DNA from: a virus
Lineage: Duplodnaviria > Caudoviricetes
Direction: 5' to 3' (one strand)
Length of the DNA stretch: 53,627 nt
IMG/VR virus record: IMGVR_UViG_3300012984_000020
Coordinates: 1-53,627 of that record
Shown: piece by piece, positions 6,229-10,135 of the stretch
Position numbering within the stretch: position 1 is the first letter of the stretch
Layout of the letters: the number at the start of each line of letters is the position of its first letter
Notes under the pieces: generated by a model
Told to the model about the DNA's origin: nothing
What the model saw: only the letters and a program-made list of their open reading frames with translations
Databases searched by the model: none
Made by a program: the position numbers and the translations under genes

Positions 6229-7158
6229 ATGGCAATCTCTCGTGCACAACTCATGAAGGAACTGCTCCCCGGGCTGAACGCCTTGTTCGGCCTGGAGTAC
6301 AAGCAGTATGCTGAAGAGCACAAGGAAATCTTCGACACCGAAAGCTCCGAGCGTTCGTTCGAGGAAGAAGTGAAGCTGTCGGGCTTCGGCGCCGCCCCGG
6401 TCAAGGCCGAAGGTGATGCGCTGTCGTACGACAACGCACAGGAAGCCTTCACGGCTCGATACGTCCACGAGACGATCGCGCTGGGCTTCAGCATCACGGA
6501 AGAAGCGGTCGAAGACAACCTCTATGACTCGCTGTCGGCGCGCTACACCAAGGCGCTGGCCCGTGCGATGGCCTACACCAAGCAGGTCAAGGCCGCGGCC
6601 GTGCTGAACAACGGCTTCAACGGCAACTTCGCTGGTGGCGACGGCGTCTCGCTGTTCGGCAACAACGCGGCGCTGGCCCGCGTCGGGCACCCGCTGGTGG
6701 GTGGTGGCGTCAACTTCAACAGCCCGCCGGTTGGCGTGGACCTGAACGAGACCGCGGTCGAGTCGGCGATCATCCAGATCGCAGCCTGGACCGATGAGCG
6801 CGGCCTGCTGATCGCAGCCAAGCCCCGCAAGATGATCGTGCCGCCGGGCCAGATGTTCAATGCTACGCGGCTGCTGCAGTCCGAGGGCCGCACCGCGACC
6901 GCGGACAACGACATCAACGCGATCCGCAATCTGTCGGCGATCCCCGGTGGCTATGGTGTGAACCACTTCCTGATGGACCCGAACAACTGGTTCATCAAGA
7001 CCGACGTGCCCAACGGCCTGAAGCACTTCAACCGTGTGGCGCTGAAGACCGGCATGGACGAGGACTTCGACACCGGCAACTGCCGCTACAAGGCCCGCGA
7101 GCGCTACAGTTTTGGTTGGTCGGACCCACTCGGAATCTGGGGCAGTAACCCAGCATAA
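6229..7158 (+). CDS. Major capsid protein (HK97 fold, Mu gpT-like)
   Basis: 'MAISRAQLMKELLPGLNALFG', 'SERSFEEEV', 'YKARERYSFGWSDP'. Strong SD, strongly biased codons, followed by a terminator. Confidence 0.9.
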   Translation: MAISRAQLMKELLPGLNALFGLEYKQYAEEHKEIFDTESSERSFEEEVKLSGFGAAPVKAEGDALSYDNAQEAFTARYVHETIALGFSITEEAVEDNLYDSLSARYTKALARAMAYTKQVKAAAVLNNGFNGNFAGGDGVSLFGNNAALARVGHPLVGGGVNFNSPPVGVDLNETAVESAIIQIAAWTDERGLLIAAKPRKMIVPPGQMFNATRLLQSEGRTATADNDINAIRNLSAIPGGYGVNHFLMDPNNWFIKTDVPNGLKHFNRVALKTGMDEDFDTGNCRYKARERYSFGWSDPLGIWGSNPA

Positions 7159-7213: not shown

Positions 7214-7249
7214 TGTTACTATGTAGGCTGAACCACTTGGAGCCTACGT
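7214..7249 (+). promoter_or_regulatory. Extended -10 promoter plus SD/start-sequestering hairpin of the endonuclease gene
   Basis: TGtTACTAT at 7214-7222. The stem ATGTAGGCT (7221-7229)/AGCCTACGT (7241-7249) overlaps the GGAG SD and the GTG start. Confidence 0.55.
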
Positions 7250-8096
7250 GCACGTCATCTATCAAATCACCTGCACCGCGAACGGCAAGTTTTACATCGG
7301 CAGCACGGTCAACAAGGCCCAGCGTTGGAAGAAGCATCGCGGCGATCTCCGCAAGGGCATCCACAAGAACCGCAACATGCAGGCGTCGTGGAGCAAGTAC
7401 GGCGAAGATGCGTTCGTCTTCGTTGTGGTCGAGGAGGTGGCCGACCCGGTGCAGCTGATGGCAGCCGAACAGCGCCGGCTGGACGTATGCGTCGGCGATC
7501 CGCAGTGTTTCAACCACAACAAGTTCGCTGACGCACCGATGCGGGGGCTTTCTGGGCCAGACACGCCGAATTACGGGCGGCACTGGCCGCCCGAGGTGCG
7601 CGCCAAGATCAGCGCCAGTCTCAGCGGTGAGAAGCATCCGAACTGGGGTAAAGAGGCATCGCCCGAGGTGCGCGCAGCGCTCGCCAAAGCCAACGAGACA
7701 AACCCCTGGCGCGGCGCGGAGCACACCCCCGAGGCCAAGGCGAAGATCGGCGAAGCTGGCCGTGGCCGCCCTCAGTCGCTGCAGACACGCGCCAAGCGCA
7801 GCGCCACGCTGCAGGGGCATGAGGTCAGCACGCTGACGCGGTTGAAGATCAGCCAGTCGCTGCAGGGCGAGGGCAACTTCTGGTACGGCAAGAAGCGCGG
7901 CGCCGAGTTCAGCGCCAAGGTGTCCCGCCCCATCGTCGCCACCAACCCCGCCGGCTTGGAGTTCACCTATCCGAGCATCACGCGGCTGCGCGAGGTGCTG
8001 GACATGACGCCGACGACGATCAACCGGGCTTTGAAGGCGGGCGAACCCTTGACACGCGGGCCGCGATCGGGCTGGAGCTTCCGGTACGCGACGTAG
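7248..8096 (+). CDS. Free-standing GIY-YIG homing endonuclease with NUMOD3 repeats
   Basis: N-terminal 'VIYQITCTANGKFYIGS...RWKKH'. NUMOD3-like units 'RAKISASLSGEKHPNWGK' and 'RLKISQSLQGEGNFWYGKK'; C-terminal HTH-like segment. Confidence 0.9.
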   Translation: MHVIYQITCTANGKFYIGSTVNKAQRWKKHRGDLRKGIHKNRNMQASWSKYGEDAFVFVVVEEVADPVQLMAAEQRRLDVCVGDPQCFNHNKFADAPMRGLSGPDTPNYGRHWPPEVRAKISASLSGEKHPNWGKEASPEVRAALAKANETNPWRGAEHTPEAKAKIGEAGRGRPQSLQTRAKRSATLQGHEVSTLTRLKISQSLQGEGNFWYGKKRGAEFSAKVSRPIVATNPAGLEFTYPSITRLREVLDMTPTTINRALKAGEPLTRGPRSGWSFRYAT

Positions 8097-8117
8097 GGGC
8101 GTACACTCGGCGCGTTA

Positions 8118-8195
8118 CCGGGAATACACACCATCACGCCACGACTGGCCCGGCAGACGACATGCAGACGGGCGTGCATCACTCGCATGTGAGGA
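8118..8195 (+). ncRNA. Candidate structured RNA (chained pseudoknots) in a 5' leader
   Basis: Interleaved stems CCGGG(8118-22)/CCCGG(8149-53), CACGCC(8135-40)/GGCGTG(8171-76), ACATGC(8160-65)/GCATGT(8185-90). The last abuts the SD GAGGA. Confidence 0.5.
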
Positions 8196-8199
8196 AACT

Positions 8200-8460
8200 A
8201 TGAGCCGCACAACCTTCTCAGGGCCTATTCGCTCGCTCGCCGGATTCGAGGGTCAAATCCTCCCGCCAGCCAGCGGTGGCGTTGCCGGCCCCGGTGTCAT
8301 CTTCACCGCCGTCCCCTCCGCCAGCCTGCCCGCACCCACCCCGGCCCTGGCCGGCGGCGTGATGATGGTGTTCGACAACGGCGCGGGCAACAATGAATGG
8401 TGCCTCGTCATCTGCACCGGCGCGGCGTGGGTGACGGCCACCGGCCAAGCGCTGACATAA
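8200..8460 (+). CDS. Small virion protein, putative head fibre/decoration with a 'TTFSGP' N-terminus
   Basis: SD GAGGA; N-terminus MSRTTFSGPI; C-terminal 'LVICTGAAWV'. Confidence 0.6.
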   Translation: MSRTTFSGPIRSLAGFEGQILPPASGGVAGPGVIFTAVPSASLPAPTPALAGGVMMVFDNGAGNNEWCLVICTGAAWVTATGQALT

Positions 8461-8755: not shown

Positions 8756-9454
8756 ATGCCCAACAAATTCGTCGGCCACGGCCCGTATCACTACGCCAAG
8801 GGCGGAGAAGTTCGCCGCGAACTGAAGTTCATGGAGGACAAGGGTGCACCCAAGTCCATGATCGCGGCCGAGAAGAAGGAGCACGGCATCGGCAAGAAGT
8901 TCGCCGACGGCGGCGTCACCGAAGGCCCGAACGCCAACATTGACGACGACACCCGTGCACGCGCGATGGCGATGATCGAGGCACGGAACAAGCCCCCGCC
9001 CGAGCAGGCCCCGCCGGAAGCCGCTGCCCAGGCGCCGGCTCCGCGGCCGCGTCCCCGCCCTGCACGTCCGCCGCAGGCGTCCTATAGCAACGAGGGTCGC
9101 GGTGGCGCGCGCCCGGCACCGCAGACGCCGCCGATCACCCCCGAGCGCGCCGCGGCCGCCGAGGCGATCGCAAGCGCCATGTCGCCCGAGCGGGCGCAGA
9201 TGATGGCCGCGAAGCGGGCGCAGCAACAGAAGGTCATCGCCGAGGCCGCGCACATCGCAGCCATTCAGGACAGCATGCGCAAGGCCAACGCCGCACCAGC
9301 GGCTGCAGCTGCGCCGCAGGCCCGCCAGCAGCCCTACATGCCCGCCGCGCCGTCGAACCAGATTCCCGGCATGCGGCAGGCCCCGGGCATGGCCGCCGGC
9401 GGCAGCATCGACGGCTGCGCAACGCGCGGCAAGACGCGCGCCCGCAGGGGGTAG
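8756..9454 (+). CDS. Low-complexity putative internal virion protein with three [FYM]AxGG motifs
   Basis: YAKGG, FADGG and MAAGG; C-terminal 'GGSIDGCATRGKTR'; TAGGAG SD. Confidence 0.7.
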   Translation: MPNKFVGHGPYHYAKGGEVRRELKFMEDKGAPKSMIAAEKKEHGIGKKFADGGVTEGPNANIDDDTRARAMAMIEARNKPPPEQAPPEAAAQAPAPRPRPRPARPPQASYSNEGRGGARPAPQTPPITPERAAAAEAIASAMSPERAQMMAAKRAQQQKVIAEAAHIAAIQDSMRKANAAPAAAAAPQARQQPYMPAAPSNQIPGMRQAPGMAAGGSIDGCATRGKTRARRG

Positions 9455-9457
9455 GCC

Positions 9458-10135
9458 GTGGCGACTTCAGGCGCAGCGGACTTCAACCTCGAACTCCTCG
9501 ACATCATCGAAGAGGCGGGCGAGCGCTGTGGCGTCGAGATTCGTGCCGGCCATCAGGTCCGCACGGCCCGGCGCAGCCTGAACCTGCTGCTGATCGAGTG
9601 GGCCAACCGGGGCCTGAACCTGTGGACCCTGGAGAAGCACGAGATCACGCTGATCCCGGGCCAGGACACCTACCAGCTGCCGGCCGACACGGTCGATCTG
9701 CTGGAGACGGTGCTGCGCACCGGCACGGGTAGCAGTCAGACCGACATCACGTTGAACCGCATCAGCGCCTCGGTCTACACGACGATCCCGAACAAGACGA
9801 GCACGAGCCGGCCGTACCAGCTGTGGGTCGATCGGCAGATCACGCCGCGCGTGGTGCTGTGGCCGGTGCCGGACAACAGCACGCCGTACACGCTGGTGAC
9901 GTGGCGCCTGCGCCGCCTGCAGAACGCCGGCCAGGGCCTGAACACGCAGGACATCCCGTTCCGCTTCCTGCCCGCGCTGATCGCCGGGCTGGCGTACCAC
10001 ATGTCGCTGAAGTTCCCCGAGGGTCTGCCCCGGATGACGGCGCTGAAGGTGCAGTACGACGACGCCTGGGGGCTGGCAAGCGACGAGGACCGTGAGAAGG
10101 CGCCTGTGCGCTTCGTACCGAGGATTTGCTCGTGA
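9458..10135 (+). CDS. Head-tail adaptor (putative)
   Basis: 'DIIEEAGERCG...ARRSLNLLLIEWANRGLNLWT...LWPVPD...RFLPALIAGLAY' resembles podovirus adaptor proteins. Confidence 0.65.
   Translation: MATSGAADFNLELLDIIEEAGERCGVEIRAGHQVRTARRSLNLLLIEWANRGLNLWTLEKHEITLIPGQDTYQLPADTVDLLETVLRTGTGSSQTDITLNRISASVYTTIPNKTSTSRPYQLWVDRQITPRVVLWPVPDNSTPYTLVTWRLRRLQNAGQGLNTQDIPFRFLPALIAGLAYHMSLKFPEGLPRMTALKVQYDDAWGLASDEDREKAPVRFVPRICS

Follow-up and report, generated by a model that had tools for sequence, protein, structure and literature searches.

The stretch of DNA analysed in the present study, referred to as the window, comprises all 53,627 nucleotides (nt) of the IMG/VR virus record IMGVR_UViG_3300012984_000020 (Duplodnaviria; Caudoviricetes), which is estimated to be 84% complete. 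Its plus strand carries a structured RNA element at 8118-8195, shortly before the gene for an 86-amino-acid (aa) protein of the cement or decoration type (8200-8460, plus strand, ATG at 8200) with the putative N-terminal anchor MSRTTFSGPIRSLAGFEG. The window holds one copy of this motif, as does each related locus in which it was found. The major capsid protein gene lies upstream at 6229-7158 (plus strand; Pfam Phage_capsid_4, E 9.9e-09, and a weak match to Mu-like_gpT, E 1.4e-04), and a gene for an SU10-type adaptor is found at 9458-10135. The original prediction, made from the window's letters only, placed the element in the leader of a post-capsid operon. That setting holds, but the direct upstream neighbour here is not the capsid gene; it is an inserted gene for a GIY-YIG/NUMOD3 homing-type endonuclease (7248-8096, plus strand; Pfam NUMOD3, E 3e-21; GIY-YIG, E 3.1e-11), which separates the capsid gene from the motif, stops 6 nt short of the latter and is not part of the RNA element.

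The element is made up of five helices in the strand order a-b-d-a'-d'-c-b'-e-c'-e', all on the plus strand. Three stems interleaved as a-b-a'-c-b'-c' had been predicted, and each can be read directly from the sequence: CCGGG (8118-8122) pairs with CCCGG (8149-8153) in helix a, CACGCC (8135-8140) with GGCGTG (8171-8176) in the core of helix b, and ACATGC (8160-8165; ACAUGC in the RNA) with GCATGT (8185-8190) in helix c. Also present as described are a short CTG/CAG stem (8145-8147 and 8154-8156) flanking a', linkers that repeat GAC (8143-8145, 8156-8158 and 8167-8169), the last within the junction AGAC (8166-8169) between c and b', and a Shine-Dalgarno (SD) sequence, GAGGA (8191-8195), read from the sequence at the 3' end of c'. 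Family alignments lengthen two of the stems. The 5' strand of helix b extends over 8135-8142, with A8141 bulged and C8142 paired to G8170, so that its 3' strand reads GGGCGUG (8170-8176), and hairpin d (8143-8158; GACUG/CAGAC) comprises G8143-C8158, an A8144.A8157 mismatch, C8145-G8156, U8146-A8155 and G8147-C8154, closing a 6-nt loop of G8148 and CCCGG (8149-8153) that carries a'. The predicted list of three stems plus hairpin d was therefore right as far as it went, but it overlooked helix e (8182-8193), in which the three bases flanking c' on each side pair with one another, CUC (8182-8184) with GAG (8191-8193). The 3' strand of e is formed by the first three bases of the SD, and its 6-nt loop GCAUGU (8185-8190) is c' itself.

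One sequence by itself is weak evidence for such a fold, and it is the relatives that carry the argument. A chain of interleaved perfect stems, with minimum lengths of 5, 6 and 6 base pairs (bp), was found in 2 of 5000 dinucleotide shuffles of 8108-8199; the same rule is satisfied by 14 of 2328 natural 92-nt windows of this record, which shows how often such chains arise in GC-rich phage DNA. These 14 include windows starting at 9247, 16469 and 25025 on the plus strand and at 415 and 3635 on the minus strand, the latter counted along the reverse complement. The nested minimum-energy fold of 8097-8205 is likewise ordinary (z +0.38; 124 of 200 shuffles as good or better), and nested folding is uninformative here because pseudoknots are not representable in a nested model. 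It is the natural chains and the ordinary fold that make the single-sequence evidence weak. A 27-letter core pattern of the motif occurs once in the window versus 0 occurrences expected.

A search with the 86-aa protein returned 73 viral loci, and the motif architecture, written in different letters, was recognised within the 120 nt inspected upstream of the gene in 72 of them (three being cut by a contig end); it is absent from the upstream region of the remaining one, L001. A protein-independent scan with the core pattern gave at least 120 stretches, and among the 120 matches listed, 119 are the true motif, each with an SD and a start codon after it, and the remaining one is a chance match inside a coding region. 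The motif is present in at least 190 viral contigs. Nearly all of the pattern-found genes encode M..TTF.GP (a few are cut by a contig end), so the statement in the original prediction that leaders of this kind precede 'TTFSGP' genes in related phages proved true of protein-found and pattern-found loci alike. Two loci, L083 and L179, have an intact motif (59-64 and 65-67 bits) before a gene that starts M.(I/L)STTQSIW. The pattern fixes the GAC elements and parts of d and a' in the loci found with it, and conservation was judged only from 37 protein-found sequences; in these, the AC of the first GAC, the whole of the second and the GA of the third, which are the G and A of the AGAC junction, are invariant.

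A cultured carrier was identified in Phage DSL-LC04, a lake isolate with the motif in an unannotated spacer (44.6 bits, E 2e-13). It was recovered by blastn against isolate phages with a second variant of the motif, a first variant having found nothing, and tblastn of the 86-aa protein against isolate phages gave no match. When genome contigs were scanned with the core pattern, 74 of the 80 matches listed were chance according to motif model R1 and six were real. These six lie on contigs of metagenome-assembled genomes assigned to Chitinophagales, Ignavibacteria, Spirochaetaceae and Gammaproteobacteria, and weakly to Bdellovibrionales and Granulosicoccus; they could be binned phage DNA, and no host conclusion is drawn. 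Two named phages mark the edge of the family. The spacer of Planktothrix phage Pag-Yong1 (L195:4404-4507) has GC-rich hairpins and no motif; this phage has a capsid gene 72.5% identical and a 'minor capsid protein' beginning MSTTLFPAPV. Roseobacter phage CRP-901 (L317:2440-2500) has at most a remnant, matched by neither model and similar to a subfamily lacking helix c (described below) minus hairpin d. In addition, L044 and L083 belong to one 65,464-base viral contig with two capsid-endonuclease-motif-cement modules that differ in the N-termini of their cement proteins, which may stem from the assembly of two related phages into a chimera or concatemer, or from a true duplication.

Covariation among these relatives upholds the central claim of the original prediction, a real, conserved and pseudoknotted sense-strand RNA in the leader of a post-capsid gene. 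In a MAFFT alignment of the 147 distinct sequences, fitted to no structure, 82.9% of cells were paired versus 65.6% after shuffling, the covariation score was 0.463 versus 0.196 (0 of 500 shuffles reached 0.463), and slid registers gave 22-41%. A second alignment of 78 representatives (75 at <80% identity and three further loci), aligned to a model of helices b and d only, had a score of 0.776 versus 0.200. Helix a, to which this alignment was not fitted, was 97.9% paired with four of its five pairs varying on both sides, helix b was 94.7% paired with eight of eight varying on both sides, and hairpin d was 99.4% paired. With 78 sequences fitted to a and c, these helices were 99.2 and 85.1% paired, respectively, and RNAalifold returned both from the alignment so fitted.

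Counts that start from fixed anchors in each sequence agree with the alignments. The middle pair of d is U-A in 69, A-U in 57 and C-G in 22 of 150 sequences, with one mismatch (U-A 40, A-U 23 and C-G 15 in the 78 representatives), and L031 has a lengthened d stem. Tracing helix b without gaps away from the GAC anchors gives 8.33 of 10 positions paired versus 4.77 (maximum 5.09) with partners swapped between sequences. An exact complement of the last five bases of the d loop, of which there are 12-13 types, occurs upstream in 146 of 150 sequences (control mean 1.3, maximum 6), and a 6-nt complement of c, with more than 30 sequence types, occurs downstream in 138 of 150 (control mean 16.1, maximum 23). 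Across helices a, b and d, G.U combinations outnumber A.C by 43 to 9, and for this reason the pairing belongs to RNA of the sense (coding) strand, not to DNA or antisense. All five helices covary, and a real structure kept by evolution is well supported by these comparisons.

Of 149 loci, 137 have a capsid-gene homologue in the same orientation upstream (11 are too short and one is without), and the distance from the end of that gene to the cement start codon is 112-237 nt in 105 of the 137 and 283-1788 nt in the other 32. Nuclease domains were detected in six of ten inserted open reading frames tested (GIY-YIG/NUMOD3, endonuclease VII and a restriction-type fold), and two further ones have HNH-like motifs by eye. 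The capsid-motif spacer appears as a hot spot for endonucleases, with examples in the window (7248-8096), L001:442-1200, L044:780-1364 and L083:414-1052, and further long spacers in L016, L020, L021, L099 and L108. In L001, whose protein is 81% identical, a second GIY-YIG gene replaces the motif, its stop overlapping the start of the downstream gene. The motif could on these grounds be conserved as DNA, as a homing-endonuclease target or a recombination joint between capsid and cement genes; the 32 spacers longer than 260 nt and the nuclease domains speak for this, and the endonucleases may indeed use the conserved DNA as their homing target. As an account of the conservation itself it is extremely improbable, because a DNA target would conserve sequence and not pairing, whereas compensatory changes in five helices together with the G.U excess are those of a single-stranded sense RNA. 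It is more likely that the endonucleases exploit a sequence conserved for the sake of the RNA.

Helix e connects the fold to translation. In the anchor-based counts on which it rests, e is paired in 372 of 411 cells versus 62.8% (maximum 68.6%) with shuffled partners, and all three pairs form in 114 of 137 sequences; model R3, built on b, d and e, left the GUG/CAC class out of register for e and c. The commonest types are CUC/GAG (49), CUU/AAG (25), GUG/CAC (24) and CUU/GAG (12), followed by rarer ones. In 83 of 137 sequences the 3' strand of e overlaps an SD-like tetramer, which starts at an offset of 0-1 nt within that strand, and the start codon follows within about 9-17 nt. Hairpin e offers c' in its 6-nt loop much as hairpin d offers a'. 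A subfamily of five loci (L112, L113, L119, L124 and L172) retains a, b and d but lacks c', and AAnGCCA stands where c would be; read by eye, a hairpin of 5-7 bp surrounds the SD instead, an arrangement that fits a gating role.

At the other end of the element, 72 of 143 sequences have a TANNNT hexamer whose end stands 7 nt (22 sequences), 8 nt (18) or 9 nt (32) upstream of helix a; other offsets account for about 3 each, and the 10-nt spacing seen in the window for 8. TTGACA-like -35 elements accompany it in 21 of the 83 sequences that have the hexamer 6-11 nt upstream of a; the window's own GCGTACACT is also found in the close relatives L003 and L015. Between a and b, 66 of 145 sequences (control mean 10.9, maximum 18) carry a further copy of a', designated a'', spaced 3-6 nt from a and reaching into the 5' end of b; most of these belong to the CCGGG family (e.g. 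L026, L005, L034, L038 and L152), and the window is not among them. To judge from its sequence, a'' would make possible a different 5' hairpin, in competition with the a:a' pseudoknot.

On balance we consider it probable, if only by a little, that the cement mRNA carries a structured, cis-acting 5' leader, of which 8118-8195 is the body, and that this leader gates ribosome access and buries the 5' end of the message. In the comparison of relatives, the five helices fold into a double 'loop-docking' pseudoknot, in which helix b closes a junction lined by the three conserved GAC elements, hairpin d offers a' to the 5'-terminal strand a, and hairpin e offers c' to the junction strand c. In most of the phages transcription would begin 0-3 nt before helix a, given a -10 element placed 7-9 nt upstream, and the 5' end would then be tucked into the fold. 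Since e and c would have to open before the SD could pair with 16S ribosomal RNA, the folded leader would gate entry of the 30S subunit to the ribosome-binding site, and the buried 5' end would shield the mRNA from 5'-end-dependent decay. Gating and protection together would determine how much cement protein is made in relation to capsid protein, the product of the gene just upstream. The proposed effects on translation and on the 5' end in vivo are inferred from sequence comparison. Among sequencing runs, none of RNA was found to contain the sequence.

Several observations weigh against this leader model. With no more than 3 bp in helix e, and with an SD placed immediately 3' of that helix in the GUG/CAC class, occlusion of the SD may be slight. 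The element is dispensable in some relatives, having been lost by L001, being absent from Pag-Yong1 and surviving at most as a remnant in CRP-901. The -10-like hexamer predicted for the window, TACACT (8102-8107, plus strand), is there as a candidate promoter element whose transcript would begin just 5' of helix a, but it is weak and stands 10 nt 5' of helix a, not at the modal 7-9 nt, and a promoter scan of the window found no sigma-70-type promoter. In 13 of 143 sequences a run of at least four T, usually after a GC-rich terminator-like stem, falls within 14 nt of helix a, and the argument from a 5'-terminal strand fails for these, about one locus in ten, because the stem and T run adjoin helix a in place of a promoter. 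Furthermore, because the sequences are related, shuffle counts cannot be read as probabilities, and two alignments were made with part of the structure as a guide; the many independent pair types per position argue against inheritance as the sole cause of the pairing. Lastly, around a dozen junction bases are invariant, more than simple gating or 5' protection requires.

The motif heads a long operon, directly after a transcription start or leaky terminator, and this location would also suit an antiterminator. The put RNAs of phage HK022 bind RNA polymerase and bring about read-through of terminators, and a nascent RNA acting in that way on the terminators of the long structural operon could account for conserved bases together with a conserved fold. 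Translation is indicated instead by the SD and start codon, which follow at a short, fixed distance, and by the pairing of the SD in e; an antiterminator needs neither, and we regard this explanation as very improbable.

The gene behind the leader encodes, by sequence and structural models, a capsid cement or decoration protein, the relatives of about 150 aa being of the Pam1/GP4 type. The DSL-LC04 gene at the homologous position is annotated 'cement protein' and starts MATTTFSGPVKAG, and a profile of twelve of the ~150-aa relatives matches the Pam1 cement protein 7eel_H (E 0.0022). An AlphaFold model of these relatives (predicted local distance difference test score, pLDDT, 70.7) is a beta sandwich whose N-terminal ~30 residues are unstructured (pLDDT ~52); with this model, Foldseek ranked first the capsid entries of GP4, KHP30 and Pam1, which contain cement proteins (template modelling scores of 0.61/0.65 to 7eel_H). 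The GP4 capsid is described in the consulted section of PMC9698820 as containing 540 capsid and 540 cement proteins, a ratio in keeping with a need to control dosage. The 86-aa protein of the window belongs to a short subfamily. It has no family in Pfam or PHROGs, its C-terminal part is without a match, and phmmer searches of PDB with it and with the DSL-LC04 protein singly gave nothing meaningful. Common to all loci are only the first ~16 residues (M..TTFSGPV.S.NGF), followed by unrelated C-terminal parts in proteins of 55-294 aa; the shared N-terminus looks like a capsid anchor bearing exchangeable outer domains.

This pattern raises the prospect of an operator worked by a protein, in which unassembled capsid protein, or the N-terminal anchor of unassembled cement protein, would bind the folded leader and keep the SD within helix e, relief following once the protein is taken up into the capsid. 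Conservation within the locus is confined to the leader RNA and those first ~16 residues; the two occur together in 72 of the 73 loci from the protein search and, among the matches listed, in nearly all of the 119 motifs from the pattern scan, and the invariant junction bases would suit a specific binding surface. A structured leader of its own gene at the ribosome-binding site, as an autogenous operator would have, is what the motif provides, ending as it does in the SD of the cement gene. Disorder of the N-terminal ~30 residues is expected of an anchor arm, and N-terminal arms are used by the cement proteins gpD and A4 gp25 according to the part of PMC12002296 drawn on here. The pseudoknot operators of gene 32 and rpsO offer a precedent (PMC3014915, in the sections cited). 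Set against this, L179 and L083 combine an intact motif with the other N-terminus, and L001 has the anchor without the motif; by uncoupling motif from peptide, these loci argue against obligatory control by the N-terminal peptide. We consider such an operator unlikely, if by no means far-fetched.

The original prediction named riboswitch-like, protein-binding, nuclease-resistant and catalytic roles as candidates. The invariant junction bases hint at a specific ligand, protein or chemistry beyond the gating proposed in the leader model. Tentatively, and as a possibility only, the leader might be a new sensing RNA whose GAC-lined junction binds a specific partner, the most appealing being the N-terminal anchor of unassembled cement protein or free capsid protein, or, at lower odds, a new ribozyme class that insulates the message from the capsid transcript. 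If the sensing version were true, cement translation would be throttled by the state of capsid assembly. Comparison with Rfam 15, a check foreseen in the original prediction, identified no known family in either the window or its relatives: 0 matches were obtained at the gathering score in the whole window, 0 at E up to 10 in 7900-8400, and 0 in 17 diverse motif-bearing loci (111,342 bases), with a scan that took in Mu-gpT-DE, pistol, hatchet, twister, hammerhead, hepatitis delta virus (HDV)-like and the known riboswitch classes.

A riboswitch for a small molecule or ion would have the GAC junction as its aptamer and c plus e as an expression platform that hides or frees the SD. The preQ1-II and SAM-II riboswitches are small pseudoknotted leaders with conserved junction bases that sequester the SD, and the motif is like them in that its last helix holds SD bases; size, pseudoknots and invariant bases beside covarying stems add to the resemblance. 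A riboswitch joins a covarying, aptamer-like fold to a platform involving the SD, and both are found here in the five helices and the overlap of e with the SD. In addition, a'' would permit two conformations in the 66 of 145 sequences that have it. It is absent from over half of the family, however, and unlike preQ1-II and SAM-II the motif matched no riboswitch family in Rfam and precedes a gene for a virion structural protein, which has no metabolic link to any ligand. A riboswitch of this sort appears distinctly unlikely.

Small ribozymes are abundant in phage genomes, and a fold this compact, pseudoknotted within ~80 nt and with invariant bases at its junction, could be a new self-cleaving class. 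Such a ribozyme would trim the message near helix a and leave a defined 5'-OH end, whether on transcripts from its own promoter or on read-through from the capsid terminator, and would act as an 'insulator'. The element lies between a very highly expressed gene and its neighbour, directly after a terminator in some loci, and no conserved sequence is needed 5' of helix a. However, cleavage would remove only 0-3 nt where the promoter is 7-9 nt upstream, and no ribozyme family of Rfam was matched. The strand order also differs from the architectures of the two classes compared. Pistol has a 5' hairpin with a 6-nt loop fully paired to a downstream strand enclosed by P2, followed by P3; here both docking hairpins, d and e, pair with strands 5' of them, and inside b the hairpin precedes the docking strand. 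HDV-like ribozymes, with nested double pseudoknots, a similar size and no need for upstream sequence, follow the order P1-P2-P3-P3'-P1'-P4-P4'-P2' and have G.U at the base of P1, as opposed to a-b-d-a'-d'-c-b'-e-c'-e' and a first pair of helix a that is C-G in 74 of 78 sequences, U-A in 2 and U-G in 2. We therefore regard self-cleavage as quite improbable.

For the leader model that we favour, the closest counterparts lie elsewhere. The Mu-gpT-DE RNA motif, a metagenomic find, is located downstream of Mu gpT-like major head genes and is like the present element in placement, the capsid gene here having the weak Mu-like_gpT match; the two are set apart by the Rfam score only. Exoribonuclease-resistant RNAs of flaviviruses have a three-way junction and two pseudoknots, one of which ties down the 5' end. 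The present motif is unlike them, its 5' end pairing with a hairpin loop and its 3' tail with a junction strand, and the hosts here are bacterial. The leader of T4 gene 32 and the rpsO (S15) operator of Escherichia coli share with the motif a 5' leader pseudoknot that acts in cis on translation initiation, in their case autogenously; each is a single H-type pseudoknot, that of gene 32 placed 67 nt before the start codon, as opposed to two pseudoknots reaching into the SD here (PMC3014915, in the sections cited). Neither has a sequence or family relation to the motif. The same sections report that the SD or AUG of T4 genes e, soc, 49 and I-TevI is sequestered in a helix (PMC3014915), which recalls the SD-bearing helix before a late gene described here, the more so as soc is also a capsid decoration gene. 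In T4, going by those sections, a plain hairpin forms only in long early transcripts and the late promoter lies inside it, whereas here the whole fold is downstream of the candidate promoter and its tertiary pairings are conserved. By this analogy, the function proposed for the motif most resembles that of the leader pseudoknots and SD-masking helices of T4 and ribosomal protein operons (PMC3014915). Full-text literature searches yielded no description of the motif, the Minerva preprint and PMC9004378 being unrelated, although the supplements of PMC10690425, a study that in its consulted part predicts 8495 unnamed candidate RNAs from IMG/VR and notes that Rfam is without a gene 32 model, may list it unnamed.

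With five helices and two pseudoknots in ~80 nt, the element has unusually dense tertiary pairing and is widespread in uncultured phages. To our knowledge, regulatory RNAs before virion structural genes are hardly known. As a possible new riboswitch, ribozyme or protein operator the motif is a clean candidate, with alignments, covariance models and the cultured carrier DSL-LC04 in hand. It marks a conserved spacer colonised by several homing endonuclease families, and it offers a handle on how phages keep their capsid and cement proteins in proportion.

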